This document shows, one piece after another, positions 11,001 through 60,389 of a stretch of 64,000 nt of DNA. The first letter of the stretch is position 1, and each line of letters opens with the position of its first letter. The notes under the pieces are model-generated. The model had not been told where the DNA came from, did no database searches, and saw nothing but the letters and a program-made list of their open reading frames with translations. This stretch comes from Squalus acanthias (Eukaryota). The stretch covers positions 112,098,001 to 112,162,000 of the forward strand of contig CM059431.1 of the NCBI GenBank assembly GCA_030390025.1, given 5' to 3'. The position numbers were made by a program, and so were the translations under genes.

Positions 11001-14000
11001 CATGTGGTACTTTGTCGAACGCCTTCTGAAAATCCATGTAGACAACATCCATTGCATTCCCTTCATCAATCCTCCCTGTTACTTCATCAAAATATTCAAT
11101 TAGATTAGTTAAACACGGCCTGCCTTTTACAAATTCATGTTGGCTCTCCTTAATTAGCTTAAACCTCTCCAAGTGCCCGTTAATTTTTTCCTTGATTATT
11201 GTTTCTAAAACTTTACCCACCACTGATGTTAAACTGACCGTGTAGTTACTAGGATTGTCCTTGCACCCTTTCTTGAACAATGGTGTCACATTTGCCACTT
11301 TCCAATCCATAGGCACCTCCCCCACATCTAGGGAAGATTGGAAAATTATGGCAAGCCCTTCCGCTATCTCCTCCCCCAATTCCCTTAGCAAGCCATCTGG
11401 ACCAGGCGACTTATCCACTCTAAGCATACCCAGCCTTTCTAGTACATCCTGTCTATCAATTTTCACCCCTTCCATTGCTCCTACCTTTTCCACTTCTACT
11501 GATATTTTGTCAGCATCCGCCTCCTTAGTAAACACCGATACAAAGTACTCATTGAGTATTCTAGCCTTGCCCTGCGCCTCTAAGCATATATCACCTTCTT
11601 TGTCTCTAATAGGCCCCACCCCGCCTCTTAATACCCGCTTACTGTTTACAGGCCGGAGAAGAATTTTGGGTTCCCTTTTATGTTAACCGCCATTCTACTC
11701 TCATATTCTCTCTTTGCCAATCTTATTTTCATGTTGCCGATTTCTTATTTGTGGACATTCCTGAGGAATCTGGAATATGATAACTTATTGAAAACTTGGT
11801 GGTAAAATAGTGCTTTCTAACTATTTACACTGCTCGGATTCTGGCCAGGGTCTGGAGCTCCAATACAGTCACTTCAGAGGGCTAAAGTCTTGTATATCTT
11901 TTTTCCTCTCGAGAATCAATTGGGACAGTTTTAGTTCACAGGAGCACTTGCTACTACTTTGGAGATTCTGCCGGTTGTACAAGTCGGGTTTTGAGAAGAA
12001 AATGATGTGCATGTATGTAGAATTAATTAATAACATTATGACATTAAGCAACTTAAATTTGTCAGATAACTGATGTAGATAAAATCGGGACTTTAGAAAA
12101 ATGTTAGGGAAGTGACAGTTAAGTGAAATCTGGAATGTTTTATCAGCACAAAGTACTTTTTGGACATCACTCATTAAAGCATAAGGCTTAACAGATGTAA
12201 GGGAAATGTGCGGTCACATTATTTTTAGGATTGGACTTTATTTCCTGTGAAAGACACCAGATATTCAATTCCTTATGTCTTGAATTCAAAATGCACAGAA
12301 AGTTGGGGGGAAATTGTTGTTCAAGTAATGTTGCTGAATATAAAAAGCAGGAAATGCGGTTCATTTTGTATTCACGTTCCTTTTGTGGGGATTGAAATGC
12401 AACACTAATTAACTTGAAGCTGACTAGTTTTGCCATTTGTAAGAACTTTTCTCAGTTGTACCACTGTGTACAAATTACAACCTAACTAAATACTTTCACA
12501 GACCACACCTACTTATCATCTCGGTTTCACATTTATTCTAATGAGTGTTTTTGCTCTCTTCCCTCTTTTTTTTCCTCCCCTCCCTCACAGGGAGTTCAGA
12601 CAGCAGGGACCGTATAGTGGTGACCAAACCGACTACAGAAAGCTGAACTCCTCAGATGAAGAAGTGTTTGCTGAAGAAAGTAAGCCCCCACAACGTTTGT
12701 ACGAAAGGAGTTATACTGTGGCAAGTGAAACCCCTTTCACTTCCCAGAGACATGCGACGGTTTCCTCGGTGCCTCCACGTCAAGCCTCTCTGAACCAGAC
12801 AGCATCAGAATTGAAAACTACAGTCAACAATATGTCAGAAAAACAAAGCCCTGTTCCATTCTATACCCGCCATTCAGTGGACTCTAAAACGGAGCAAAGT
12901 CGGGTTTCAAGTTCTCTGCCTCGGAATTACCAAAGACCTGACGTGTCCAGGATTGCACCTGTGGTTGTGCCAAGACCCTACGGTTCGCAATCTAATAAAG
13001 TCTCCTCCCTCACTAGATCTTATCCGGTAAGTGGTTCTGGATAAATCCAATATGTTTATTTAAGCAAACTATTTCAGGGTTGTTTCTGTTTTCATTAAGT
13101 GTGTTGGTTTGGGGCCGTTTCCCTTCAGATGTGTTCAAGGTCTCGGGTTGCGAGCTGCTTCATTGTGCATCAATAATAAACCAGTTCTCTTTGGCTCTGC
13201 AACTTAGCAGCCGTATAGATTTCTTTTTATTTCTTGCTCTCTGCATTCTCGTTTTAGTTTGTTGTACTGGTGCAAAATGTGAGCAAACTGTACTCTTTGA
13301 ATTCATTTCATTTCTGGACGCGACTATGCAGACATTTAATTTGAGTATTTTCCGTTTTTTGGAAGCAGGAATAGTGAAGGGGAATTTAGAACATTTTTTG
13401 CACCACTTGATGCAGAAGCTTAAAACTACCAAGCCAGCGCATCCAATTTTAATTTCTGTGGTTGTCATTATGCAAACGCTTTTTCAATTGTAACAGCATA
13501 TGTAAACTAATACCAATATGTGGCATTTCAGTGTGTAACACAAGAGCAGAAAATGCTGGTAAACATTCAGTTCAGGAAGCATTTGTGAAGTGAACAGACA
13601 AGTTTGTTGCTGATCCTACTTCAAAAGCTCCAGCATTTACTGTTTTGTTTCAGATGTCCAGCATCTGTAGTTTTTGTTTGCTTTTTGTTTGCATTTCAAT
13701 TTTTGGCTTCCTTTTGGGAGGAAAGAGAGACACTCGCAGTGCATAAGCTTTGAATTTCATCTTTTAAAATTAGTGCCCAAAGATTCAAGACAAATTAGTA
13801 TCATTGTTAAGCACGTTACCCTCTCCTGCCTATTTCTTCCCAAACCCCTGCCCACCCCACCCCAAGTAAACTCTGCTTGATGGTACAAGATCCAAGTAAG
13901 CCAGATTACTTCACAATCTAATAAGGGTTTTGAGCAGTAGCAAACTTACTGTGCTGTCTGCTGCTGCCAGTCTTCTCTGGCACTGTACAGAGTGATGGTT

Positions 14001-20000: not shown

Positions 20001-23000
20001 CATTTCCTTTTTAATCAGAGTTATTACATTGACTATCCTCCAGCCCCCAGTACAATGTTAATGTCTAAGGAGGATTGGAAAAACTGTGGCCAGAACCTTT
20101 ATTATTTCCTTCAACACTCAGCAGGCATGCCATTAGGGCCCAGAACCAATTCCTTTCCACTGCAATCTCTAAACAATTGTTGCACATCTTCCTCCAGTAA
20201 TCCTACATTCTCACTTCCCTCACCATTTGAAAAAACTGGCACAAAATATTGAATATTCTTGGCCATACCTTCCTCCTTCACAAGTAAGACTTTCCTACTT
20301 CATCCCTGAATGATCTTCCCTTTTTTAACTGCTCTTTTACTTAAAGCCCTTGCTATTTCTTTTTATATTTTCATGATGTTTATTTGCTTTCCTAATTGCA
20401 TTGGGTAATTTACCACAAGTTTAAAATTGGATATTTTTATGCCACTAATTACTGATTTGGGATGAAGTAGCTTATCAAAATAGATGGCCTATGCATGTGA
20501 CCCTAGATTGTTTGCTAAAATCTGTGTGCTGGCTTTCTTAACAATGTTTGTACCAGTTGTGGTTCACTTTGCAGCTGGAGCCAAATTAAATTACACACAT
20601 CCACTGCACTAGATATAATTAGCAGATTGACAATGCTTCAGTGCTAGACATTGGATCCCAGGGATATGATTGGGCCCTGCACACCTAACCCTTTATAACA
20701 ACAGAAAACGCTGGAAAAACTCAGCAGGCCAGGCAGAGAGAAATAGAGTTAACATTTCAGGTCGAAGACCTTTCGTCAGAACTGGAAAAAAGCAGGAAAT
20801 GAAATAGATTTTAAAGCAAGTTTAGGGCTGGGAAAAGGGGGAGGGGATGAAAGAACAAAAAGGAAGGTCAGTGATAGGATAGAAAGCAGGAGAGATTAAG
20901 AGATATTGAGAGATATTCAAGGCAAGAGGAGGTGGAAATGGGACAGGTTGAGGAACAAAGGATGGCTCTAGATGAAGTGTGAATTGCGCTGGCAGAATGA
21001 AGGACAGCTGCCAGCTTCTGGGAGGGAAGAAAAAAAGGCCAAACAAAAGTGTGGATAAAAAAATATATAAATAAATTTTTACCGGGGTTATGATCTGAAA
21101 TTGTTGAACTCTGTATTGAGTCCAGAGGGCTGTAGAGTGCCTAATTGAAAGATGAGGTGCTGTTCCTCGAGCTTACGCTGAGCTTCTGTGGAACAATGCA
21201 AGAGGCCGATGACGGTGAGGTCTGAGTGGGAATGGAGCGGTGAATTAAAGTGACAGGCCACCGGGCGCTCGGGGTCCCCCTTACGAACTGAACGGAGGTG
21301 TTCCACAAAGCCTAACCCTTTGTTAGGTTTATAAATAAATGGAAACTTTTGTGATGCCCTAAAGTAACCTTCGCTCCTCCTTTCTCCTACCTCCTGTCCA
21401 ATGTTTCCTTTTTTTTTGGGTGCGTGGTCCCTTTAAATTTCCACGCATGCACGGCTTTTCCATTTAAAAGCCGGTGAGCCGGCTGCGCGGGACCTCCAGA
21501 CCGCTGTGCGGCCGCGCAGCTTAACGGAAACATTGCTCCTGTCCCATCCTGGAGTTTTACATGGACACTTCAGGATCTGGAGACCACACACCTCACCATA
21601 TCTACTTTACAGTTTGGAAATGGTGTAATAGATAGTATGAATGCTGATTGCAATTTTATAAAGCTCCAGAACCATTTCCATTCAATTTTCTGACCCGCTG
21701 TGAAATGGCTTGATTCTTTAGCAGAAAATCTTGGTGGTTATAATATCTAATGCATTTGAATTCAAAATTGTTGTTCTCTTCTGCGAGTCGATCCACATCT
21801 TACCCCTTCCCTTCATTGGCCACCTCCTCCAGCACTACTTGCTGACTTTTGACTCTGGCCTCCTTTGCATTCCCTTTTCTCTTCGCTCCAACGTCAGTCT
21901 TGAAACCTTCAGCCACACTCTCTAGAAAGCTCGCCTTAAAACCTTCTGCTATGGTACCTCTCTTCACTCCTTCAAAATGTAACTTTTTGACTCTGCCTTC
22001 AGTCACCTCCCTTAACTCTTCTCCCATTGCCAGCTGGTGTGTGTTTTATTCCCCTCTCTACCACTTTGGGGCATTTTGTGTTAAAGTTGCGATATAAATG
22101 CAAGTTGTTGTGTTAAACTTTTCAAACTGCGAGCCAAAATAGAGCGCACAGAATTTTGGAATGTGGATAATCTTCTCCACTCCAATTTATCCCGCTCTAT
22201 TGAACTATGGATCTCCGCTTTCTCATGCAAGGAAATGCCATGGAGAAGATGGAAGAAGAAAAGTAGCAACTGTGGGGAAAGTTATTGATGCATTTGAGTG
22301 TACCAGTCAGTGACCAACCAAGAGTGGCATGGGTGGAGGCCTCAAAGCAGGTCGACTACTGTCTCTGTTGTAGTTGATGCTTGGGATGGAAAAAAAAAGA
22401 AAATCATGAGCAGGGCAAATAACAAGATGAGAAGGAAAACCAGACTGAAACAAAGACATTATGGGTGTGATGAATACTAAAGACAAACCCTCAGCAAAAA
22501 CTTTAAATATTTGTGTGAAACTTGAAGTTCGCAACACAATTCGTAATGTGGAGGTTGCTACATTTGTAACAATCTACAGACCGAAAATGAAGTCCTTCAC
22601 GTTATCTTTTGTCATAATTTGCAATGAGCACGACAGATTGAGGTCACAGCCTGACATTACCTGATCTGGTGAGATAATACGGAGGGTAATGTTTTTTAAG
22701 AGAGCCAAGTAGAAGAAAAGCCTCTTTTCAAGTTTTATGGAAGAAGTAGAGAGTGAACAACTTTTAATTTTATAAAAACTGCATCAGTCAGTATAGCTCC
22801 TATTTCTCTCTTTTTTTGTGGCCAGGTGGACCAGCAGAATATTGCCAGTTGGAAGTGGATGATGAAATACTTTCTATCAATGGCAATAATGTAGCCAGTA
22901 TGGACTATCGGGCTTGGATAGGAGCCATGGAGAATGCAAACAAAAGTGGAAACTTGAACATGGAAGTCAGAAGATATGGAAATAGCAGTAAGTCCATAAT

Positions 23001-26000
23001 TCATTTTGGTTCTTTTTACTTCTTTAGCTAACTAATGGAGATGCAACCTTTTTTTGTGCGTCCTGAATAAATAACTGAGCAAATATCCCATCAAAAACTG
23101 TTATGGCTCTACTGAGATTTGTTTTTACTGTTTCCTGTGGCAATGGTCAATGCTTAACTAATAATGAAGAGGAGAATTAACAGATATTTGTGACAGTGAC
23201 AGCAGTCACTGCCAACACACAATTTATTTTCTAGATTTGCTGAGTAATCAGGCCATAGGCCGGAATTTTCACAGGAAAAAATGGGTGGGGCAGGGTGGGG
23301 GAGGTGGAGGTGTTGGTGGGGAGTGAAAGTTGTAAAAATCTAAAACCCGACTCCAACTCTCCCACTTTCAATTTTTTACTCAGGCGGGACTGGGGGCAGG
23401 CAGCCAACCTGCTGCCAGGAGGCGGGTTGGTATTTTAAATATTATGAGGCCTGAAGCCTCTACTTTAACCTGCTTTGCCGGTTTTACTGCAGGCGGCCGG
23501 GGATCCCGAGGCAGCCGCAATGAGGCGACTCAGCCCCGGGGTCGGGGGATCGGACACGCCCCTGGGCTTGGTCCCCCCTCCCCCTCCCCCCCCCTCCCTC
23601 CTCCCCCCCTCCTCCCTCCCCCCCCCCCCCCCCCCCCCCCCTTAAACACGGCTTGGAACCCCACCATCCTGGGCCCAACACCTACCTGGTCTGTGTTCCC
23701 TGCCCGACTGGAAGCCAGCTTGTCAATCAGGCTGGCTTGTGGGCGGGGAAACCGCCCTTTACGTCGCGCGCACGCTGTGGAACTTCCGGATTTCCCGCCG
23801 TCTCACGGGTCCCCCCACCCCGTGCGGGTGGGAAACGGGAACATCCTGGCCTTAGTGTCAATATAATGCATTGAGCAGAGTGCTGTATGGAGAGCCAGTT
23901 TACTTTGTGCTACACGTATCCAAATACCATGTTCGGGTGCACCATTACTGGCTACATATGCCACCTGCCTGCCCCCAAATGAAAAAAACAACTTTTTTTA
24001 TTTAATAAAAAGGTTTTTAACTTCTTTACCCAGAGAGTGGTTAGAATGTGACACTTGCTACCACAGGGGGTGGGTGAGGCAAATAGCATAGATGCATTTA
24101 AGGGGAAGCTAGATAAGGGAGGCGGGAGAAAGGAATAAGAAGGATATGCCGATAGGATTAGATGAGTTAGTGTGGAGCATAAATACCGACACAGACCAGT
24201 TGGGCCGAATGGCCTGTTTCTGTGCTGTAAATATCCAATTTAAACAATCCATGGGACATCCAGGTGTTGTAATATGGCTGTATATAAATAAATGCTAGTA
24301 CAATTTCTTTCTTTTACCCTTTCCTTTCACACTCTCTTCTCTAGCGTGCCCTCTTGCTCTTTCTCGCGTTTGCTCTCTATCTCGCACGCACTCTCTTTCT
24401 CGCCCTCTTGTGTTGTTATTCATTATTTAAACCCACTGGAAGGTTTCCAAGGAAATCGAGGTTGTCACCATAGCAGCTGTGATCCTGTGGTAAAGTTATG
24501 TGGAAAAGTGGTTTGTGAATTCTGCTCCCCAGTCACCTGTCCCCTATTTAACTTTTAAATATGTTAGGAATTTTAAACCTAACTTGATACCAAGACAATT
24601 GCATGAAAATGAGAAGTGGTCTGTTTACCAGAGCCCTGACTAGCACACAGCGCTTTAGTTTGAACTCCTGCACGCACATTTCACTTGCCTCTGTCTTTTT
24701 GCTTCTATTTCTGTGTGCTCTGCTGACTGCATTTCAGTAGTTCTCTGTTTTTGCAGCTTGAACTACCTACGTAGCTTAGACAGGGGCGCCCTGACTGAGC
24801 TTTGGATTATTATAAAACTATCATTCTGACCAGTCTGGCTCTAAAATATTCTAGGTACAAGTGAAGCGAAATACGCTACCTTCAACAAACCCATTAGATG
24901 GGAAGAGGCCGAGAGGACCATGGTGACCAGCAGGAGCCAACCCCTCAATCAATTAACAAATGTAGGTTTTTGCAAATTTGTGTTTATATAGTTTTAGCAT
25001 GCTGAAATGGGTATTATGTATGTCTGTGAACTAGCTAATCTAGCAAATTAGTTTTTAATGCAATTGTTTTTAGATATCCGAATGTAAAATGCGTGTTCAG
25101 AATTCTGAATGTCGATGACCAGGTCACTTGAATCGGTCTTCCATGTTTTAGTGCAAGTTGCATGGCTTCTCATCTGGCCCAAGAGGATTGTTGCAACAGT
25201 TGAATACCTGGATATGGAGAGGCCCTGAGTGGAGGGAGTACAGTTGGATGCAAAAGCACCGCAGGTTGCTGTTTGTGACATTGTTGGAGGCTTTGAAGCG
25301 GGTTGCCTAGCTGCCATCCCTCTTGGCATCGTTGGTCAGTGAGACCAGAGAAATGGGAAAGAATGCAAAGTCACCTACAGCCAAAAAAAAGAGTTTGGAA
25401 GGAAACCTGCTGGATAGACGCTAATAGTTGTCCTTGACTAATTTTGTCCTTGTTCAACAATCACAAAAAAAATCAGTGTCTCTGATAAAGCATAATAACA
25501 GTAACATTACTCAACAGGATTGTATGGAGCAATAATGCTTCTTGAGCAGTAGCTTGATATACCAGCATTTTCAAAGCAGGAGGAGATTTGAGAAAATGAA
25601 CAGCAGACACAGTAGGAAATGCCATGTGCAAAACAGGTGGTGCATTCAACTTGTGTGCTGGAAGGAAAGAAAATTGTCTTGGCTGCTTCTGCTAAGATCC
25701 TGACTCATACAACTTAACCTAACTACTGGACGCAACGGGTGTGATTTTATGAATGTGTACCATTGATAGACAGCCTCACCCAATGCCACATTTATCAGGA
25801 AATTGTCGCCAGCGCACCCGCAGTTGCCCCCTCTGCATAGTTGCCATACAAAGCTCCCTGCTCATTGGATGCACTTGTAACATCAGCCCCTGTGTTTCTT
25901 TCAAAATGAGCCGTTAACGCGTTACAACTTTTTCACCCAGACTCTTTGTTTAACAACATTTGAGGCAATGAATTGAGAGAGATCTACTTTTTGGCAATTA

Positions 26001-29000
26001 ACAGGTTGGTCGATCAGAAGGAGACCAGGAGAAATTGCTGGAGGATCCAAGGCAAAAAGGTAAACTATTTAAAATATTTCAAAATGACTACTTTCTGATT
26101 GGGATAGTTTTTAATAACAGGCCCTCAAAGGAAAACTTTGCCCTCAAGGTTAGATATTTTTCTGTAGTTTTATACAACGTCTCTGGGCCACATGTGAGAG
26201 AATTACGTAGCGAGTGAAATACTGAATTTATTCAACTTGCATGAGGGAACCAGAATTACTTCAGCATGAGGTGCATCCAGCAGTCAAACCAGCTGTGTTC
26301 TTTGCCTTGGCTCAGATGGGTTTGACCGGATTTGTAAAGAATCATTTTGCTTTTAGCATAATCTGTGTGGCAAGAATCTAAGTGAAAGATTGGTAGACAA
26401 CTCCTAGTTTCCCTTCTCATTCTCCTTTTTCTCTTTCTCCCTCCACCCCCCCCCCCCCCCCCCCCAAAAATAAATAAATTTGGCCACCTTTATACTGTAA
26501 AGCAGTGCTCACCAATTTGCAAGCTAGAATGTGATTGACTTAAGAAAACTACTAGGCACTTGGTCTAAGCGTTAAACAAAGCTTTAACCAACTGTTTTTC
26601 AACATGGGGATCTAGTTGTGTCCTTCACTAGTTCCTGTTAAAGAATGTCCTGAGCAAGCTGGGCCCATGCCCGAGTATTTATACTCTCCCTGGACAGCGC
26701 CACCAGCAGGCCGCCCAGTATTATTTCATAAGTAATTTCCACATGAATGACAAGATTCATGTCAGTGATCATGAGGGATTCTGCCTGAATGGTTCTTTCA
26801 AAATGAGCGCTAAATATTGGGCCGGATATTCCGATCCCTACGCGTGTGTACACACCCGTAGGGACATCGGAAATGCCGGTTTCAGGCATTCCAAGCGCAT
26901 GCGCTGAAAACTGCCATTTCCGATCTGTCAAGACAGATCGGACGCCTGCCCTGGCGAAGGGCCTCTGCGGGCGGATAGTTCCGCTTTCTGGAGAACCTCC
27001 GCCCGCAGAAAACCCTTAGAAATCTTACGCCTGGTAAAAGCTTTAACCAGCATAAGATTTGAAAAAAGTAAAAAAAAAAATGTTTCACTCATTTTTCATT
27101 TAAAAATACTTTAAAAAAAAAGGTAAGTTTATTTTTAGCCCCATAAAAAACTTTAATTCTTTTTTCAAAAAATTAAATTTTTGTTTAAAATATTTAATTT
27201 ATTGTAATTTCAACTAATTTTAAAAATGTGTTTTAAAAATTTTATTTAATGTTTTAAAGTGTTTTTGGGGTGATCTCCATTCATATATTTGACAGGTTTA
27301 TCTGTCAAGTTTATGAAGGGAGATTTGGCTCCCCATGGCCCACATGATCCCAGGGACGCTTGCGAACTGCATGCGCCCCTGGGATACGTGGGCCCTGCGC
27401 ATTTCGAGTTGGAGAGGCCCAGGAGCGGAAGTGTCCGGACCTTGGGTAAGTGCGTAGATTTTTTCCAGCTCGTAGGCCTCCGCACGCGGGAAGCCTCCGA
27501 TCGGAAAATACGGCCCATTAAGCACCACAAATGTGATGGAACTGGAGCCACCTATAAATAATTGCTTCATTTGTGGAAGTGACTGGTAGATTCCATAAAA
27601 CTGTACATTTTGTAACCACAACATCAATTTGCCCACTCAATGTTAAACTCGTACTGCAGTACATTATAGGATTTCCTTCTTGTATATAAAACCTCCGCCG
27701 TGCAGCAATTTCATTATCTGAACTGTACTTGCACTTGTGTATAAAATAAGCTATAATTTCCTTTTATTATATGTCGACGCTGTGTGATAATGGCCCTGAA
27801 TTTGCGGTCGGAGGCTTCCTGCGGGGAAATGCCTCCGATCAGCAAGTAAAATGCCCGCCTACCTGGTGGTCCAGGAGGTACGGAGACTCGCGGTCCTGGG
27901 CCTCTTCGGGTACCCGCGGGTAGAGGCCCACGTATCCCAGGAGCACAGGCGGTTCGCCAGCCCAACCAATGAAAGAAGGGGAATCCCCATTCATGCTTAT
28001 GGGAATTCCGTATGTACGGCAACCCCATAAGTATGAATGGGAATACCCCCAAAAATACCTCTACAGTTTAAATAAATAAAAAAAAATCACATTTAAAATT
28101 AATTAAAATGGTATTTAATTAAATATTTAAAACAAAAATGTAATTGTTTTAAAGGGGCTAAAATAAACTTACCTTATTTCACAGGTTTTTAAATGTATAA
28201 ATTATTGACTTTGTTTTTGTTTGTTTTTAAAACTCTTACGCTGGTAAAAGCAGGCCTTACTAGGCGTAAGAATTTCACGGGCATTCGCTTGGCAGAAATT
28301 GGGCAAATAGCCCAACTCCGCCCGCGGATGTCCTTTTCCTGGGGATGCGGAGGATCTGTCAAGATCTGACAGCTCGCAAGTTCCGGGGTGCAGCGCATGC
28401 CTAAACTCGGAACTCGTGCGGCCCTTACGGGCGCGTGCACACCTCATATGCACCCATAGGGGCCACGAATTACGGCACATGTATCTGGATGTTGAAGAAT
28501 GAAGTCTTTAAATGCAGTTTGATTTTTGGATTATATATATAATCCATCTTGTATAGAGCCCGGTGGAGAGTTATCACTTAATGATCTAACATGCAAGTAG
28601 GGCGCCATTGTATAATCTCATGATGTAATTCAAAATTGGCCTCCATCTTAAAAACAACATTATCTTCACTTGTGATATCAATAGAAAGCTTGCCTGCTGT
28701 TTGTTTTTAGGGGTAAGATTCAACATGTGTGGTCCAAACAGATGTGTGTAAAGCATCAGCTGGGAATAATACTGGTGTGTGGGTGTGTTGGGCAAAGGCA
28801 CTTGCAGTATCTTCAAAAGCTATTCTGTCTTCAAATGATAAAATGTAGTCAAAATAGTTCTAAAAACATCAAACAAAGGGGAATTTGATATAAATGGAAT
28901 GGGCACTCGCAGCTTGTGTTCCTGTCAACACATAATTTTGAGGTCATTCCTAGATTAAATCCTGTAGAATGTAACTGTTAGTATTGTCTCTTCTCTTTGA

Positions 29001-32000
29001 TCTCTTTTTACAGCTACACAGGCGGTTGGGTTGAAGTGATGTACAATTTTGCTGTAAGCGGAGGGTGCGGGAAATGGTTCAAAATGAAACGAAGGCTAAA
29101 ATCAAATACTGTTAAGTGCATGAAAGAAGGATATTTTTTATTCAACCAAAGTATGGTTTCAAAAAGAAAACTGCAATTAAGTGCTTGATGCACATTTTTA
29201 GGGATTCAGACAAATTATGTGTCAACTTCAATCTGAATTCAAAGTATTGAAATGCAATCGACATTAAAGGACCCTAACAACTTCTCATGGCGCATTCGCA
29301 TATAATATAGATGTAATATCTCTAAGTTTGCAGACGACACAAAGCTGGGTGGGCATGTGTGCTGTGAGGAGGATGCAGAGAAACTCCAGTATGATTTGGA
29401 CAGGTTGGGTGATTGGGCAGATGCAGTATAATGTGGATAAATGCGAGGTTAACCACTTTGGTGGCAAAAACAGGAAGACAGATTATTATCTGAACGGCAA
29501 TAGATTGGGAAAAGGGGAAGTGCAACGAGATCTGGGAGTCCTTGTGCACCAGTCACTGAAGGTAAGCATGCAGGTGCAGCAGGCGGTTAAGAAGGCAAAT
29601 GGTATGTTGGCCTTCATAGCGAGTGGATTCGAGTACAGGAGCAAGGATGTCTTGCTGCAGTTGTACAGGGCCTTGGTGAGACCACACCTTGAGTATTGTG
29701 TGCAGTTTTGGTCGCCTTATCTGAGGAAGGATGTTCTTGCCATGGAGGGAGTGCAGCGAAGATTTACCAGACTGATACCTGGGATGGCAGGAATGACGTA
29801 TGAAGAGAGATTGGGTCGATTAGGCTTATATTCGCTAGAGTTTAGAAGAATGAGAGGGGATCTCATTGAAACTTATAAAATTCTAACAGGACTAGACAGA
29901 CTAGATGCAGGAAGGATGTTCCTGATGGCGGGGGAGTCCAGAACCAGAGGTCACAATCTAAGGATAAGGGGTAAGCCATTTAGGACTGAGATGAGGAGGA
30001 ATTTCTTCACCCAGAGAGTGGTGAACCTGTGGAATTCTCTACCACACAAGGCAGTTGAGGCCAATTCATTAAATATATTCAAGAAGGAGATAGATATATT
30101 TCTTAAGGCTAAAGGGATCAAGGGATATGGGGAGAAAGCAGGGACAGGGTACTGAATTTGGATGATCAGTCATGATCTCATTAAATGGCGGAGCAGGCTC
30201 GAGGGGCCGAATGGCCTACTCCTGCTCCTATCTTCTATGCTTCTATAAGTTCTATTTTATAAGAGGAAGCCAAATAGAAATTAATCAAAGCTCGGTGCTA
30301 GTTTTGTTGCCTTTTAAAAGCAGCCCAGCCCATAACTGAAAAACCTGCACCGAAGCGGTAGATTTCAAGTCATGTTAGGGAGGATGAATCATTATAATTA
30401 TTGATGGGTAATATGTTCGCACTTTGAAATTGTAATAGTATTGGCTGAAAGTTACACGAGTTTTGTTAACCCTATCACTGTCAGTAGCGCAGAGCTCTGG
30501 TTGTGAATATTTGGTATGTGTTAACAGAGCAGGGAATAATAGATTCCAAGAACTGAGATTGTAAGGCTCTAATTTATCCATTGGTGTAACTTCCTAAACC
30601 ACAATAGTAAAGCTTGAATGTTCTAGGAAAGCAGGGAACTCTTATTTTAAATAGAAAGTGCTGGAAACACTCGGCAGGTCAGGCAGCAGAGTCAGAACTG
30701 GAAAAGTTTAGGGAGGAGAGATTTTTAAGCAGGGGCAGGGAGGAGGGGAGGAAAGAACAAAAGCGAAGGTCTGTGAGAGGCTGGAAGGCCGGAGAGATTG
30801 ACTGACAAAAGGGATGATGGTGCAAGGCAAAAGGAGATGGTAATGGAACAAGTTAAGAAACAAAAGATGGCTCTAGATGAGGTGTGACCGATGATGGCAG
30901 CAACATTAACAGCTACCGTGTGAGGAAACGAGAGAGAAAAAAATTAAAGAAATACGAAGGCCAATTTATAGTCTGAAATTGTTGAACTTGTTTTGGACTT
31001 GACATTGAGTTCAACAATTTCAGACTATAATTGTTAATGTTGCTGCCATCATCATTCACACCTCATCTAGAGCCAACTTTTGTTTCTTAACTTGTCCCAT
31101 TACCCGTTCTGCCTGGACCCCTCCCTCTGGCCTCTTACCCTCTCTAGATCTTTTCATTGTTAACTGCCGGCGTGACATCGGCCGTCTCAATTTCTCTGCT
31201 CCCCTCTCTCACTCCAGCCTACCTCCCTCTGAACTTGCAGCACACTCTTCCCTCAGATCCAACCCCGACATTGTCATTAAACCTGCTGACAAGGGTGGTG
31301 CTGTTGTTGTTTGGCGTACCGACCTCTACCTAGCAGAAGCTGAACGGCAACTCTCCGACACCTCCTCCTACCTCCACCTGGACCATGACCCCACTACCGA
31401 ACATCAAGCCACCATTTTCAAGACCGTCATTGACCTCATCTCCTCTGGAGATCTCCCCCCCCCCCCCCCCCCCCCCCACCCCCCCCCACGGCCGCCAACC
31501 TCATAGTCCCCAACCCCGCACAGCCCGCTTCTACCTCCTTCCCAAGATCCACAAACAGGACTGCCCCGGTAGACCCATCGTTTCAGCCTGTTCTTGCCCC
31601 ACGGAACTTATCTCTTCCTACCTCGACTCTATATTTTCTCCCCTTGTCCAGTCTCTTCCTACCTACATCCGCGACTCTTCCGATGCCCTCCGCCACTTTA
31701 ACAGTTTCCAGTTTCCTGGCCCCAACCGCCTCCTTTTCACTGGACGTACAATCCCTCTACACCTCCATTCCCCACCAGGATGGCCTGAGAGCGCTCCGCT
31801 TCTTCCTTGAACAGAGGCCCAACCAGTCCCCATCCACCACCACCCTCCTCCGCCTGGCTGAACTTGTTCTCACATTGAACAACTTCTCCTTTGACTCCAC
31901 CCATTTCCTCCAAATCAAAGGTGTTGCTATGGGTACCCGCATGGGTCCTAGCTATGCCTGCCTTTTCGTGGGATATGTGGAACACTCTTTGTTCCAGTCC

Positions 32001-35000
32001 TACTTGGGTCCTCTCCCTCACCTCTTTTTCCGGTACATTGATGACTGTATCGGTGCAGTCTCCTGCTCTCGCCCTGAACTAGAACATTTCATTCACTATG
32101 CTTCCAATTGCCACCCTTCCCTCACCTTCACATGGTCCATCTCCGACTCTTCCCTTCCCTTCCTCGACTTCTCCGTCTCCATCTCTGGGGATAGGTTATT
32201 GACTAACATTCACTACAAGCCCACTGACTCCCACAGCTACCTGGACTACACTTCCTCCCACCCCGCCTCCTGTAAGGACTCTATTCCATTCTCGCAGTTT
32301 CTCCGCCTCCGCCGCATCTGCTCTGACGATGCCACCTTCCATACCAGTGCTTCCGACATGTCTTCCTTTTTCCTCAACCGAGGATTCCCCTCTACTGTGG
32401 TTGACACGGCCCTCGACCGTGTCCGTTCTATCTCCCGCACTTCTGCCCTCACCCCTGCCCCTCCCTCCCAGAACCACGATAGAGTTCCCCTTGTCCTCAC
32501 CTTTCACCCCACCAGCCTTCACATTCAACGGATCATCCTCCGCCATTTCCGCCACCTCCAGCGTGATCCCACCACCAAACGCATCTTCCCCTCACCTCCC
32601 CTTTCAGCATTCCGCAGGGACCGCTCCCTCCGCGATACCCTAGTCCACTCCTCTACCACCCCCAGCACCCCTTCCCCTTCGCCCGGCACATTCCCGTGCA
32701 AGCGCAGGAGATGCAACACATGCCCTTATACCTCCCCCCTTCCCACTGTCCAGGGCCCCAAACACCCCTTCCAGGTGAAACAGCGATTTACTTGTACTTC
32801 CTGCAATTTAGTATACTGTATTCGCTGTTCACGATGTGGTCTCCTCTACATTGGGGAGACCAAACGCAGATTGGGTGACCGCTTTGCGGAACACCTCCGT
32901 TCAGTTCGTAAGGGGGACCCCGAGCTCCCGGTCGCCTGTCACTTTAATTCTCCGCTCCACTCCCACTCTGACCTCACCATCCTCGGCCTATTACACTGTT
33001 CCACGGAAGCGCAGCGTAAGCTCGAGGAACAGCACCTCATCTTTCGTTTAGGCACCCTACAGCCTTCTGGACTCCACATCGAGTTCAACAATTTTAGATC
33101 ATAACCTCAGCCCCTATCACATTTATATTTTATTTTTTCATCCAACCTTTTGTTTGGCCCCCCCCCCAGTTTTTTTCCCTCCCAGAAGCTGGCAGCTGTC
33201 CTTCATTCTGCCAGTGCATTTCACACTTCATTTAGCCTCAACCAGTCACATTAACACCACCTCTTGCCTTGATCATCTCTTAATGTCTCTCAATGTCTCT
33301 TAATCTCTCCTTTTGTTCTTTCATCCCCTCCCTCTTTTCCCAGCTTTATACTTGCTTTAAATCTATTTCATTTCCTGTTTTTTTCCAGTTCTGACGAAAG
33401 GTCTTCGACCTGAAACGTTAACTCTGTTTCTCTCTCCACGGATGCTGCCTGGCCTGCTGAGTTTTTCCAGCGTTTTCTGTTGTTATTTCCCGTTACCTCT
33501 CCTTTTGCCTTGCACTATCCTCCCTTTTGTCAGTCAGTCTCTCCTGCTTTCCATCCGAACACAGACCTTCCCTTTGTTCTTTCCTCCCCTCCTCCCTGCC
33601 CCTGCTTAAAAATCTCTCTTCCCTAACCTTTTCCAGTTCTGACGAAGGGCTCGACTCGAAACGTTGATTCTGTTTCTCCTCTCCTCGATGCTGCCTGACC
33701 TGCTGAGTGTTTCCAGCACTTTCTGTTGTTATTTCAGATTTCCAGCATCCGCAGTATTTTGTTATTGTCTTATTTTAAATAGTTGCTTATATAATTTTGT
33801 ATTTGATGTAGCTGCTGGCCCTTGAGGAAGGAAAATAATAAAAATGAATTGTATGTAATTTACCAGAATGATGTATACTCCACATATAAACAGGGTTATC
33901 GAAGTGTGTTTTTACTCCATATATTTTTGTGTTGACTGTCCATTCCTAATGTGTACATGTAATTCATTGTTTTGTGATCGAAATAAACTTGATAGCTAAT
34001 GCATTTTGTATTTTTGCTTTAGCATCTGAACCCCTTAGTCTGAAAAACTTTAAAAGGCGATCCCAGTTTTTTGAACAAGGTAAAACAAAAATTAATATGC
34101 GTGTATGTTTTGTGGGGCTGGCTAACATCTAGGCTTCCCGTTATGCTGACTGACTGTTATGGTATTGAAACATATAGTCATGGCTTTCCATATATTCATC
34201 TGCCTGGTAAAGCTTATGATTTTGTATATGCCTCTCTTCTTTCTGTAGGCTCAGCAGAGTTTGTTTTCAATTCATCGGTCTACCTTTGTGGTAATCGTTA
34301 TTCATTGTGTTTTTTTGACAGATGTGTTCATCTTTTTAAAAATGCTGTTTCAGACCTCGGAAATGTTTCCAATTTCTAACCATCGTTAGATATTTGGCAA
34401 ACAAGCGTTCTGTTTTTGTAATTTCACCGAGTGTGTAAATGCCTGATGCAAAATATAAAACAGGATGAAACAGCAGACCATTTGAAGGCCATACCAACAT
34501 TTTAATATGTCATTTTAGATTGTGAAATCTGAGTGTTGGAGTACCAATCCAATTAGTTAGACAGTTCAAAATTTACAATATTGCATTTTGTTAAATATAT
34601 TTTTCTCGAACAAAATCCAATCAGCAGACTAGGTTTGCAACAACAGTGTGTGCTTTAGTAATATTCAAACGGCAACCTGCAAATGTTGGTACGGTCTCAT
34701 TTTTTAACATTACCTCTTGCTTGCTATCTTCACGCAGCTTTGTGAATGAAATGCATCACATCCTTTGTACTCTTTTCCTCTTTTGTGCAATAGTATTGGA
34801 TTTTGCACATTTTTTGTGCCATAAGCATTGTAAACTCAAAGAAAGTGTGTTTGACAAAAATGCATTGTTTTATATACATGCAGAAAACGGATTGAAATAA
34901 TACAAAGTAGTACAATAATCAGTGGTGCCATATCATCTCAAATTACATGACATTACCCATTGTCTCTTTAGGGTGGCTTTAATAGACATCCAGCTGTTTG

Positions 35001-37269
35001 CACTGAGAAATGAGTTTGATGTTGCAGTTTGAGCTTTTTCCCAACATCTTTTCCTCATTTTAAGCAGTTTGATGAAAGGTTCCTTAGCAGATCAAGTCTT
35101 GATTGAAATCTACACCTTTTATTGTCTGCTGTATTTGGGTTAGTTTAGCCCAAGCTGGACAATTAACCTGAGCGCTGTAAATTACTGGAGAATATATAGG
35201 ATGCCAATTACGTTTCCAATCATCTCAGACGCCAGAAAATGTCTTGCAGCTGGAGCACTTTGTGCAGGCTGAAATTTGTCTCCAAGATTTGTTTAGAGAG
35301 AATATGATTTACAGAAGCTAAAACATAAAAAAAGAAAGACTTGCATTTATATAGCGCCTTTCACGACCACCAGACGTCTCGAGGCGCTTTACAGCCAATT
35401 AAGTCCTTTTGAAGTGGAGTCACTGTTGTAATGTGGGAAACGCAGCAGCCAATTTGCGCACAGCAAGCTCCCACAAACAGCAATGCGATAATGACCAGAT
35501 CATCTGTGTTTTTTTGTTATGTTGGCTGAGGGATAAATATTGGCCGGGACACTAAGTGAGATACTATGCAGCGCAATCAATATTTTACATAGCATACAAA
35601 CTGGGTTGGCTGTTTTAAACAGAAATTCTTTCTCTCGGCAAGCCTCTGATGGTACCTAGCTCTATCCTGCCCTGTCCTGTTTAGTGACACAATCAGTCGA
35701 AAAACTGAAGAACACAAGAAAGTCTCTCGGTTATAGGGATGTTTTTCCTTTGAAATTGGAGCAAATTTCTAGGATGGTTTCACCCTTCATCTTGATTATA
35801 TTAAATAACAATGATTTCTTGCCGCATCACAATGACACCAGTTGTAAATTCCGATACAATGACTCTAATTTGCGTAGCAAATACAAAAGAACAGAGGATC
35901 CAGCAGTTAATTCACAAATGTTGGATCTTCTATGCCTATCAACATTATTGACTTGGCAGTTGCAAACCAATGTCTTTGGGCCTTCCAGATGTCATTCAGT
36001 GCTTTTAGAGTTGCTGCATAGGAGAAAGGTAGTTGGTGAGGTGAAGAAGAAATATTTTTTAGGAACATTAAACGAGTTGTACTGAGGCTGATTTGAAAGA
36101 ACTTCTATCTTAGTGAAGCAGACTCAAGCAGTGAGTTACGCTGTGCTGAGAAGCTGCAGTATTTTGGGGCTGTTCATCAGCTTATAAATTCTTTTCTTCT
36201 TTTGCAGGAGGATCAGAGTCGGCAATGAGTGATGTAAGTATAGTACAAATTCTACCCTTCGATTGTGTGTAAAAATTTCCATAATGCAATATTGAGCTGT
36301 CTTCAGTAGGAAGTAGAAAAATATCTCATGCCTGTTGTGCACTATTTGACATGGTGCATTAAAGGGATACCATTCGGCCTTTTGCATGTCTCCAGAAATA
36401 GATCAAAAAACAAGACCTTAATTAAAGATATTTGAACGCTTCATAAATTCAGTCGATCATTGGCAGAAGCGCTTGACATTAAAGAAAGTTATATACTATG
36501 TGTATGCACATTTAAAAAAAAAAAAATAAAGGTGTTACATGCTTTCTTCTTGCTGTGGTATGTTAGCTACAAATTCCATCAATTAGTGTTTCAAGTCGTT
36601 GGTCTTGGAATCCCGAGGAAGAGAGAAAGCGCCAGGAAGTTTGGCAGAAAGAGCAGGACCGATTGTTACAGGTACAGTGTGGCTATAGAGCTAGCCACGT
36701 GGTGTTGAGGTGATTTTGCGGGTTTACTAATAAATGCTTTGCATGGATGCTAGCCCTTTAATATAGTGCCTTGTGACACCAGGCAAAGGTGTTCCATTCT
36801 ATTATATAGCTGCTTAAGACTTTTGTGCAAAGGGTAGAATAAGGGAGGATGTGAACCATTGGACGCAAGTTTTTTTATTAAATCCATCTTTGCATTTATT
36901 TGAAGTGCCTCGATTTCTCAACTATTTCCTGCTGTGGGGATTGTGTCTTTAATTTATTTTTCTTCTCTGCTTATCTTGAGACTGTCAAATGTCCCCCAGC
37001 TGCCAGAGCAGTACACCTGCTCATTTCGCAAGCTTCTACCAATGTCCATTTGAAGCCAGTTATCAGAGGGTGCATGTGCATGGACTTCAGCGAGACTGCT
37101 TCCATATGAGAAGTTCTACTTGCTCAATATCTTCCCGTGGTCATGTGGCTAAGATCAGTAGTTCAATGTAGGAAAGATTGTGGGTGGGTGTGTGCCATCA
37201 CCTTGAGGCTCCACCACTCCATTAGTAACACATTTAATTTAAAGAATTCATTCTCTGATCAAGTTCGTC

Positions 37270-37306
<37 letters not shown>

Positions 37307-40300
37307 TTCCTAGTCTCTGTTGGAATGACAGGTACAGTAGTTGAATCTATTGTATGTCATTGTACCATCAGTTGTCTGGGAATCACTGAAGTAGTCTGCA
37401 TTGTTTGGGATTGGGACACGCGTAGTCTGTTCAATCCCGCATAAGTAGAACAGCATCCCGGGGTGCTTGACTTGTAACTTTAAACAAGAAATGCAAATTG
37501 GCAATAGAATCACATTGAGACCGGCAGCCAGCGTGGTCAAATTAATATCGTCAGCTTATTTTGAATGGCCGATCAATTATGCACCACTTAAATAAATGTT
37601 CTTAATCCACCAGAATGGGAGTTATTTACGCCTTGATTATGATCAGTGAAAATTTCAATTTGTTTTGCTATCAGAGCATTTGTTTCACTATTGATTTAAA
37701 AAAAAAAAATTAAAAGAAGTATCCCGTTGGCCAATGAACATGCACAGCATTTCATATTGGAGCATTCTGAGCCTCTGTTGTCCAAACCAATTTACCATCC
37801 TTTTGCTTCAGGAAGGACATAATGCTACCCTTTTCTAACTGTAGCCCTAATGCTGGCATGTTGTCATGGTGCTGTTGCTGGTTATAAAAAGGAGCATGCA
37901 TGAAGTAGTGGTGATGGCTTATCCTTTTTATTGGTTGTAATTGTGCAGTGGTAGCTCTTGTATAAACAGCCTTTGCCAAATCTAGACTCAGAGCAATAAA
38001 AACAGAAAATGCTGGAAATACTCAGCAGGTCAGGCAGCATCTGTAGAGAGAGAAACAGAGTTCATGTTTCAGGTCGATGACCCTAGACTCCAAGCAATTC
38101 ACTGCAAGTGTTCATCTGAAATGGTAGAAACCATCGCAAGGCGTGCATTGTCAACACTTAAGAATGTGACATGCATCATTCATCGACTTTGAATCACTTA
38201 TTCAATGTTGGTTCTTGTGGTACAGTTCAGCAAAGTTTTATCATCAAATAATGTACTTCACTTTTAGTGTGAATCCTGTAGAATCTCAGCTTTAATGTTT
38301 TAAATTTGATAATGTACAGATTTTACTTCATGTTTTGAATAGCTAAATTCTGACAACGCCAAACATTTTATTACTAATATGACTGAGTGAAATCAGCAAT
38401 TTAAAGATTTCTTGGGAGTTTTAGTCTGGATTCAAGTTTTGGCATTGGTAGTTATTCCTCGTAGTACTAGTGGGCCAATGTGAAAACACACGCCCTTCCT
38501 TACTTCCACGCACAAAAGCTTTCATTTACCTAATGGTTTTGATCGTTTGGGACTATTAGGAAAAATATCAGCGCGAGCAGGAGAAACTGCAAGAAGAGTG
38601 GAAAAAGGCCCAGGAAGAGGCTGAACAAGAAGGTTCCAAGTACTATGAAGAGGTAACGAGAGATGCATTCAACAGGTTGTGGGGGGGCGGGTATCCATGG
38701 AGATGAGGGAAAGGGCAACACACCAATCTCTGAAACAGCAATACATTTTAGATTGTTTTAAGTTAGAAGGGGACTAAAAGGTATTAAAGTATTGACTGAG
38801 ATCAAACATTTTGGAGTTTTGTTGTTTCGTGTCAAATTTAGCCATAATAAACATCCCTTTAACAGCCAAACTGGAAAATATTGATTTCTGCCTTTCTGAT
38901 GTTGCAATAATTCATCATATAAATGTTCATCATATATTACTCAAAATTGGTAATCTGGTGTTTTTGATTAGAGTATATTTTTACGCTTCTGGGTCCGAAC
39001 ACTTTAAAAAAATGTCTAGTGGCTTTAACAGGCTTTCCTTACAAAAGCTGAATTATTTTTTTTTTAAACTGAGAGCTGCCAGTTACTAATAGCAACCATT
39101 AGGCAAAACCTTTTTTCCTGCTGGTATTATGATTGATGGCTTTGACTTGCCAATGAAACAGAATGGGGATGGGGAGCATTTTCTTTAATTATCTATCTTT
39201 CGGCTGATTTTTAAGACCGCAGTGACTTTTTAAATGTCCTATTCTTTCGACTTCCATGTACAAATAGAATGTTGCTATCATTCCTTGGGGCAAAACAGTA
39301 CTGCATACAAAACACCCGTGGGCACTGCCCTTTGTAAGAAATTCATGCCTTGTGCTAGCACGAGATAAGTATTCTTCTCCAAATCATTGCAATTGCTGTT
39401 TCATTCTTTGTTTTGAGTTCAAAAGATCTTCAACTTTCCAAGTACATGTAGAAAGGCATTTTTCTTCTAGGCTGTTGCCTACTTATTAGCAGCAAAATTC
39501 TCATCGCATTTCACAGCACAGTATTCAGCAGTGGCCAACCCTAATTGGATCAATAGCAAAATACTGCGGATGCTGGAAAACTGAAATAACAACAGAAAGC
39601 GCTGGGGAAAAACTCAGCAGGCCAGGCAACATCCGTGGAGAGAAACAGAGTTAACGTTTCTGACGAAGGGTCTTCGACCTGAAACGTTAACTCTGTTTCT
39701 CTCTCCACGGATGTTGCCTGGCCTGCTGAGTTTTTCCAGCGCTTTCTGTTGTTATCCTAGTTGGATCAACTCTGGTGCATCTTTTTCAGACACTATTGGG
39801 TAACAAACAGCTGCTAATTTTAAATTTGGACCCAGTGGTTATGGATCCTTCCCCATAACTAAATCGCATAAAACGTTGTCTTCTCGGTCTTCCATCATTA
39901 CCTGGTTTTGATGTGCAAGTCATGCTCAAAACTCCGCACAAGGTTCACTGGGCCACAATCCTGGCTACAGAAATGTTGATTCTCTCAGAAATGAGACACT
40001 TGGCATCCAGTTCTATCCAGAAGCAATCATTCAATTCTCGGCCAGCAAGTGAACGAAGGGTGGTCAGGGAGTGTTAGTAATAAAAGAAAGAAAAGAAAGA
40101 CTTGCATTTATATCGCGCCTTTCATGACCACCGGATGTCCCAAAGCGTTTTACAGCCAATGAAGTCACTTTTAAAGTGTAGTCACTGTTGTAATGTGGGA
40201 AACGCGGCAGCCAATTTGCCCACAGCAAGCTCCCACACACAGCAATGTGATAATGATCAGATAATCTGTTGTTTTATTGATGTTATTGAGGGATAAATAT

Positions 40301-59295: not shown

Positions 59296-59921
59296 TAGTT
59301 TTAATATTCAAAATCACCTGATCTATCTACATATTAGAAGTATGTAAACAGGCAAGATTGGCAAGGATTTGTATACTGACAAATGGGGAAACTTGGCATC
59401 AATTTTTCTTAAAATATGTGATATTGTGACAAATTGAGAATATTCTGTCTAAACTGGAAGCTGGTAAGCATTTGTACACTCTTTCTGAAGCAGCTTATAT
59501 TTTTCCTTGAATAGTCTCAGCAGTGGTTAGAAAATGTCACAGCACTGCAGTTTAATTGAATAGTATACAGTTAACAAACTGACAAGTGCCTGATTCCTAT
59601 CAACCTGAGAGACTCCTGTGAAGTTTTACAAGCTCCAGTTGAATTTTAAACACTGCTGTGAAGTTATTCTCGGCTAATTCTGGCTAAGATTCAGCTACTG
59701 AGCATATGTGTATTTAGAAATCTAACTATGATATTAATATGGAGCAGATTATTATTAAAATAATGTGTGCATTAAAGCATTTTTTAGAATGTCACAAGCA
59801 CATAGAAAGCTGTAGTTCTCTTAAAATGGTGCCTATAGGTATGGTTTGTTATGTACTTCAATCAAATGATGCCACCTTGTGGTGTGATTGCAACAATTAC
59901 TACAAACACTGTTAATATTTT

Positions 59922-60138
59922 ACAATAGCAAAATACTGCGGATGCTGGAAATCTGAAATAACAACACAGAATGCTGGAAACACTCAACAGGCCAGGCAGC
60001 ATCCGTGGAGAGAGAAACAGAGTTAACGTTTCAGGTCTGTGACCCTTCGTCAGACGAAGGGTCACAGACCTGAAACGTTAACTCTGTTTCTCTCTCCACA
60101 GATGCTGCCTGGCCTGCTGAGTGTTTCCAGCATTTTCT
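59922..60138. mobile_element. Fold-back PLE-derived hairpin element
   Basis: near-perfect palindrome centred at 60052; perfect 14-bp TSD ACTGTTAATATTTT (59908-21, 60139-52); hammerhead core on minus strand 60018-60053. Confidence 0.88.
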
Positions 60139-60389
60139 ACTGTTAATATTTTTGTTTAGTTAACTTTGTGCAATTATCCCATTGCACAGAGTATATTTTC
60201 TACTATTAAAGCCACGTTTCTGAAATTCATTGGTGTTCTATTTGATTAAAAAAACTGAAGATACTTCAAGGCTCAAGTGAGGTATGTAGCGTCGGTTTGC
60301 TCGGAATTTTGATTTCCTGTAGAGACGTGTGCTTTATTTTTCAGTGAATTTGTTTGAGACTCTTGTGATAGATTTTGGAACTTCATTGC

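Follow-up and report, generated by a model that had tools for sequence, protein, structure and literature searches.

Two hammerhead motifs, probably inactive, left in an LMO7 intron of Squalus acanthias by nested Penelope-like elements

Penelope-like elements (PLEs) are known for insertions with an inverted, truncated and tailed structure (PMC8557442, PMC3846280, PMC2377424), and the insertion of one PLE into another, inverted arms, tails and tandem hammerheads have all been published before. Here, we describe a 64,000-nucleotide stretch of the spiny dogfish Squalus acanthias (GenBank assembly GCA_030390025.1, contig CM059431.1, positions 112,098,001 to 112,162,000; hereafter the window, in whose numbering all coordinates are given), in which an intron of the gene LMO7 holds two PLE insertions, the second within the first, and with them a pair of hammerhead ribozyme motifs. 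A search that excluded most subscription literature found no papers that deal with this locus or with PLE ribozymes of elasmobranchs.

Several described systems resemble the locus in part. The EN+ (endonuclease-bearing) Neptune-type PLEs of Craig et al. (2021, PMC8557442) carry a reverse transcriptase (RT) followed by a C-terminal GIY-YIG domain, with a CX2-5CxxC linker, and show 5' truncation, an inverted truncated copy and an optional tail of 30-40 nt; the shark elements share these traits, but their tandem look comes from two subfamilies that are 81% alike, and the open reading frame (ORF) is a truncated, frameshifted remnant. Both Neptune and Poseidon are named for vertebrates in a survey (bioRxiv 10.64898/2026.07.22.740005). 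Nesting itself has a counterpart in Adineta vaga, where Pen2a_Av lies in Pen3 with inverted pseudo-long-terminal repeats (pLTRs), a palindromic junction, a tail and a short duplication (PMC3846280), although those two elements, unlike the shark pair, are in opposite orientation and nearly full-length. Metazoan PLE hammerheads (Cervera and de la Pena 2014, PMC4209133) have the same palindromic minimal stem III, short stem I and extra base between positions 9 and 10.1, and need a partner; the shark motifs depart from them in the A10.1-U11.1 pair that replaces the conserved G-C in the inner one, in the 3-bp stem II of the outer one and in being partners from different subfamilies. The Anolis Poseidon element PAc (PMC11167929) offers a parallel in its two internal start sites, which set the tail, its two-strand priming and the hammerhead left uncut in inserted copies, but it belongs to another clade, its hammerhead overlaps the ORF start, and the shark locus makes no assisting protein. 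Non-LTR retrozymes (bioRxiv 10.64898/2026.07.22.740005) likewise bear PLE-derived tandem type I hammerheads, 51-972 nt apart, with 42-44% of Xenopus copies intronic and an occurrence in a cartilaginous fish; they repeat one unit, whereas the shark pair consists of two differing units and arose by nesting. Finally, the Cpeb3 ribozyme (PMC10919898) is likewise a self-cleaving motif located within an intron, ahead of an exon, but it is single-copy, monomeric and shown to be active, whereas the shark pair is repeat-derived and decayed, with its activity a matter of prediction.

We are confident in reading the locus as two successive PLE insertions, the second within the first, whose hammerhead pair are likely inactive passengers, the older motif being decayed and predicted to be bound in a duplex. 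The outer PLE (30655-33767) is a fold-back element flanked by an exact 15-bp target-site duplication, and the inner PLE (31105-33487) is of a related subfamily, their untranslated regions (UTRs) being 81% alike with many indels. The features, where a strand applies given relative to the window, are as follows.

26060-34022, + strand: host LMO7 intron, about 8 kb, between exons 26005-26059 and 34023-34080
30640-30654: outer target-site duplication, left copy, 15 bp, exact
30655-30990, - strand: inverted, tail-less arm of the outer PLE, with ORF end and UTR in antisense; the inner boundary may reach 30998
30966-31030: head-to-head axis, with perfect 23-bp arms 30966-30988 and 31008-31030, a 19-nt loop and its midpoint at 30998
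30991-31104, + strand: direct arm of the outer PLE, piece 1, with the last ORF codons, the stop and the start of the UTR
31095-31104: inner target-site duplication, left copy
31105-33104, + strand: ORF remnant of the inner PLE, 5'-truncated, with RT (YIDD), CX4CX2C linker and GIY-YIG
33105-33487, + strand: 3' UTR or pLTR of the inner PLE, with a tail-less end
33387-33423, + strand: inner minimal type I hammerhead, core 33391, predicted cut 33419/33420
33488-33497: inner target-site duplication, right copy, one mismatch
33498-33767, + strand: direct arm of the outer PLE, piece 2, ending with a 32-nt tail (33736-33767)
33635-33669, + strand: outer minimal hammerhead, decayed, core 33639, predicted cut 33665/33666
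33768-33782: outer target-site duplication, right copy
34023-34080, + strand: downstream LMO7 exon

A preliminary description of this DNA, made from its letters alone, had proposed the nesting, and the two duplications, the uninterrupted left outer arm and relatives' contigs across the site all bear it out. The left arm runs unbroken across the inner insertion site, where it has the 10-mer of the duplication once, and so serves as an internal record of the empty site. Read in reverse complement, it corresponds to 30991-31104 joined to 33498-33767, with 264 of 288 aligned columns identical (91.7%). Contigs with relatives of the outer UTR cross the insertion site as well, the joint 30837/31104 appearing in three runs (3, 4 and 4 contigs) and the joint 31104-33524 in one contig, and in run X6 the alignment of a related PLE copy starts precisely at 31105, the copy continuing in other letters. 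Among the 32 contig pieces listed, none bridges 31104/31105 or 33497/33498 so as to show the inner element in relatives. The inner duplication, described earlier as 10 bp, does lie at 31095-31104 and 33488-33497 but matches at 9 of 10 positions (by chance, 1 in 20000 at a fixed register and 2 in 2000 with a slack of 3 either way), and because its first two bases coincide with the next bases of the PLE family sequence, its true length is 8-10 bp. An alternative inner duplication of 6 bp (31103/33489) was ruled out, the left arm carrying one copy of the 10-mer.

As for the outer element, none of 2000 random pairs of places reached the 15 bp of its exact duplication (best, 9), and the perfect 23-bp stem is centred at the axis near 30998 that had been given for it. 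Its arms do stand head to head as described, but the palindrome is not a clean one: besides the 24 differing columns there are two deletions in opposite arms, one of 41 nt in the left arm that takes out the hammerhead from stem II to the 3' strand of stem I, and one of 53 nt in the right arm, in the UTR directly after the stop codon. The left arm also lacks the last 45 nt, tail included, and both arms start with the last codons of a PLE ORF, 83% like the end of the inner ORF. A contig of organism C (33736-34400, 23 mismatching letters) bridges the right outer junction by 32 nt, and the outer element is therefore older than the split from organism C; flank divergence of about 4% against 8% between the arms would make it roughly twice as old as that split. 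At the left junction, organisms A, C and E each have their contigs ending at 30682, 28 nt inside and short of the 31 nt required for a bridge, and one contig of organism E stops at 33765, followed by 62 unaligned letters. A contig of run X6, which comes from the same organism as the window and is RNA by guess, crosses the fold-back axis (30924-31072) with 9 of 149 letters differing, where DNA contigs on the unique flank differ at 1 of 661, 2 of 462 and 10 of 1004; hairpin editing or another copy could account for these mismatches.

That the whole 3.1 kb entered in one integration, either as the canonical succession of inverted pLTR, direct pLTR, ORF, pLTR and tail or as a template-switch chimera, strikes us as highly improbable. 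The order of the parts does mimic typical Penelope structure, and the inner duplication is imperfect at one base and shares 2 nt with the family sequence, as such an origin would allow. However, the UTRs are just 81% alike where the outer arms are 92% alike, the ORF starts in mid-domain instead of after a pLTR, the left arm has one copy of the duplicated 10-mer, and an insertion is a simpler account than a template switch that returns to the very point it left. A canonical partial-tandem PLE was also considered and rejected, there being no near-identical pLTRs around a complete ORF.

The inner PLE had been called coding. A PLE ORF is indeed present, but it lacks the first 90-105 or so of about 760 residues and its frame is broken in the C run 31455-31487 and near 31740, with no stop in the 651 codons read; given the 5' truncation and two frameshifts, this is a dead copy. 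Within the broken ORF, RT and GIY-YIG follow one another in the order of EN+ PLEs (Pfam GIY-YIG E 3.3e-4 and RVT_1 E 6.3e-4, both under the curated cut-offs), and the CX4CX2C linker at residues 320-328 of the 454-residue ORF piece fits the Neptune/Nematis definition CX2-5CxxC, a mark that would place the element in Neptune or Nematis. Among 8000 proteins scored, 852 were related to the ORF at E<=0.001, the best being a whale shark protein at 71%. When six long relatives were aligned by tblastn, P0043 reached upstream to 30982, which we take as a weak extension into the outer arm, and the others started at 31084-31108 or later. A short duplication, 5' truncation, an optional tail and an inverted truncated copy are found across the inner and outer elements, and to judge from its sequence the inner element agrees with EN+ PLEs in every feature tested. 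A sibling at 20695-21311 (- strand), 91.6% alike (522 of 570), stops without a tail at the same position and is flanked by an 11-bp duplication of its own, which shows that a lone insertion without a tail is nothing unusual in the inner family. Both end types, tailed and tail-less, recur in other insertions in the window, each with its own duplication, and would fit the two internal start sites and two-strand priming described for Anolis (PMC11167929). The sibling has a mutated stem III, and a further single tail-less insertion lies at 37990-38082 (- strand) with an 8-bp duplication. The C run that breaks the inner frame is 33 nt long; more C runs lie at 1741, 23576-23641, 26436-26466 and 53626, and these may be expansions or assembly effects.

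Why the second element should have landed in the first is a question of origin only, and an answer in terms of targeting, for which the endonuclease or an RNA-DNA preference for pLTRs would aim the inner element at PLE sequence, is compatible with inactive ribozymes. The preliminary description had raised this option, which a single case does not allow one to read. A review notes a tendency of PLEs to land in or beside copies already present (PMC6765202), nicking within the element's own pLTR has been proposed (PMC11167929), about 30% of Drosophila virilis copies are tandem (PMC2377424), a rotifer provides a PLE-in-PLE case (PMC3846280), and, as a target, the outer element made up just about 1.2% of the window (728 of some 61,600 bases). 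The window contains seven PLE insertions amounting to 4295 bases (6.7%, or 3.1% without the inner element), a density of about 109 insertions per Mb, and of 100000 simulations of uniform insertion in random order, 18.8% produced one nesting or more. Six of the seven insertions lie outside PLE sequence, the inner target shows no AT richness and no motif in common with the other five duplications, and the window was chosen for this very feature. Summed contig depth, which is not a copy number, is of order 10^6 over the hammerhead bin against about 9 on unique flank, so the PLE family is very abundant, and nestings should be common genome-wide without targeting. Overall, we hold targeting to be possible but rather unlikely. 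A 26-nt match at 12558-12583 was removed from the PLE count as a pyrimidine tract, and an old PLE tail relic at 13629-13678 is 85% like the outer tail region.

The host gene is LMO7 on the + strand. The translated exon 12580-13017 matches 32 of 292 candidate proteins, 31 of them named LMO7 and every named one from a cartilaginous fish, with shark proteins the best at 80-83% identity, and three shark proteins aligned to the window trace about 20 exons from 982 to 56351. This alignment agrees with the earlier placing of the site within an LMO7 intron, in sense, with the next exon from 34023. Run X6 covers both exon-containing bins (depth 29.1 and 33.4) and leaves 4 of 30 unique-intron bins uncovered; the splice joint 26059-34023 is absent among the 15 joints listed of 3340 in the contig alignment.

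Pattern matching also recovers the two hammerhead cores at 33391 and 33639 as first described, 248 nt apart, sense to LMO7 and each with AACGTT, while the distance of about 350 nt to exon 34023 holds for the second predicted cut (358 nt) but not for the first (604 nt). Both motifs comprise CUGACGA, an extra A, stem II, GAAA, CG, the triplet GUU and AACGTT, and both show what defines the minimal type I hammerhead, namely CUGANGA with GAAA, a UH cut site, a palindromic 15.2-16.2 and an extra base before 10.1. Rfam gave no match at gathering score over the whole window, and the calls thus rest on pattern matching and the published description. In the inner element the core lies in the pLTR or 3' UTR, 287 nt past the stop, and the motif has a 4-bp stem I (-4.2 kcal/mol) and a 5-bp stem II (-4.1 kcal/mol) that starts with A-U, a first pair shared by the sibling at 20695-21311. 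The outer motif has a 3-bp stem II (+1.0 kcal/mol) with a G-C first pair and a stem I of -2.3 kcal/mol with two G-U pairs; T33656 in its stem II is a private C-to-T change, C making up 94-100% of the aligned depth in four of four runs. Across the window copies the first pair of stem II is G-C, G-U or A-U, a variation which suggests that the family kept the fold. The eight hammerhead-bearing pieces in the window that retain this part all continue past the cut site, and not one begins there. Identity with a non-LTR retrozyme was rejected, as there is no tandem array of one unit; Tandem Repeats Finder reported no such array in 25800-36800, the UTRs differing as described above. Two short fold-back PLE insertions elsewhere, 39545-39769 (9-bp exact duplication) and 59908-60152 (14-bp exact), have head-to-head junctions at the hammerhead CUGA core, destroying stem I, and because the two arms of each have private variants in common (73 of 73 and 78 of 80 alike), they come from one source.

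The preliminary description went on to treat as established that such motifs cleave poorly as monomers but work as tandem dimers, and proposed that nesting may have rebuilt an active dimeric ribozyme. The first half of the premise stands, in that a single minimal PLE hammerhead was inactive, but dimers and trimers cleaved weakly (PMC4209133), and the Anolis PLE hammerhead cleaved only with its protein, with no RNA-seq reads ending at the cut (PMC11167929). A rebuilt active dimer is unlikely because the outer motif is decayed and its core is predicted to be sequestered by the antisense arm. In a partition function over the whole element (30640-33782), a model that leaves out pseudoknotted folds, the outer stem I strand and CUGAC (33630-33643) pair with the left arm at P 0.94-1.0, and pairing with that arm averages P 0.93 over 33498-33645 and 0.99 over 33689-33722.

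How strongly should one then weigh a working double or half hammerhead that arose by nesting and cuts LMO7 pre-mRNA, lowering or tuning the mRNA as the Cpeb3 intronic ribozyme does? Both cores are intact, in sense and 248 nt apart, and all the stems of the double-hammerhead fold can be drawn in a nested arrangement; a tandem layout might help adjacent pairs to dimerize, according to a review (PMC6765202), intronic ribozymes can modulate mRNA maturation (PMC10919898), and the outer substrate strand is predicted to be free of duplex. Set against this are folding energies, of which only the order counts since they omit tertiary contacts and have no known active dimer as control. The double fold lies 30.1 kcal/mol and the half folds 15.3 and 20.3 kcal/mol above the free ensemble of 33370-33700, and within that segment alone cross stem III and cross stem I both have P 0.000. 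Between short copies the active fold costs 11.6 kcal/mol for inner-inner, 14.4 for inner-outer and 17.3 for outer-outer, the heterodimer thus being 2.8 kcal/mol worse than the inner homodimer. The predicted sequestration of the outer core by the left arm also counts against it, as does the slowness of published dimers (PMC4209133). The cuts, moreover, would lie just 358-604 nt before the exon, which at the usual rate of elongation is a matter of seconds, and at the rise of an A-form helix a duplex of about 150 bp would probably keep the partners some 40 nm apart. We judge a working ribozyme of this kind to be very unlikely. Scarcely to be expected, too, is the hybrid hammerhead that the model would still permit, in which the inner core would act on the exposed outer cut site to cut LMO7 pre-mRNA, with the fold-back duplex as a switch.

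Several points nevertheless tell against taking the pair as inactive passengers of two successive insertions. All core bases and AACGTT are intact in both motifs, and the inner motif has no clear damage except the A-U first pair of stem II. The outer cut-site strand (33644-33688, with the cut site itself in 33644-33672) is predicted to lie outside the duplex, owing to the 41-nt deletion in the left arm, and a half ribozyme made of the inner core and the outer cut site would be compatible with the sequence. Pairing across the 2.4-kb loop may be slower than equilibrium implies; among edited Alus, 78.3% have an inverted partner within 1 kb (PMC4053975). Stop codons do not independently mark the inner element as the younger, 0 being seen against 1.7 expected at the outer element's age (P about 0.18), and the inactivity of the pair is a prediction, not a measurement.

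A different host effect would be on splicing, with the pyrimidine tract and AG before the inner hammerhead serving as a cryptic LMO7 acceptor. Such a site (33366-33389) lies directly 5' of the inner stem I, and its AG at 33389 ranks first among 442 intronic AGs, with 10.3 bits against 7.4 for the true acceptor, on a matrix from 18 other LMO7 acceptors that is crude and includes at least one misplaced training site. The intron of D. virilis Penelope extends up to the 5' end of helix I (PMC4209133), which is in keeping with this idea. However, four other intronic sites score 9.5-10.1 with the same crude matrix, and no such joint occurs among the 15 listed of 3340; we doubt very much that splicing is the main effect.

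Returning to two successive insertions with an inactive hammerhead pair, we envisage the following history. A PLE would first have been reverse-transcribed onto both strands of a staggered cut, giving the observed head-to-head fold-back with its 15-bp duplication, one arm presumably starting from the tail end and the other some 30-45 nt upstream. A related subfamily then entered the direct arm, an order that follows from the nesting, probably by target-primed reverse transcription that left it tail-less and 5'-truncated, after which both elements accumulated the differences now seen, presumably by neutral decay. In LMO7 pre-mRNA, pairing of the two arms is predicted to give a hairpin of about 280 bp from which the inner element loops out; the ribozyme dimer would form at no useful rate, the intron would be spliced normally and ADAR may edit the hairpin. 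On this model, the long intronic hairpin is the likeliest effect at the RNA level.

Read as it most likely should be, the locus is one more decayed PLE cluster of little import. It can serve as a teaching case, as the antisense arm preserves the pre-insertion site and both start sites of reverse transcription are visible. Were a hybrid ribozyme to cut the pre-mRNA after all, PLE hammerheads would work in vivo without their protein, nesting could create gene-regulating ribozymes, and such pairs across the repeat-rich shark genome would be a source of new intronic ribozymes.

Upstream of the outer element, a LINE (long interspersed nuclear element) fragment at about 29301-30243, which we take to be CR1-like, is seemingly missing in organism C, where one contig maps to 28450-29300 and 30244-30682 only; the fragment would then be younger than the outer PLE.

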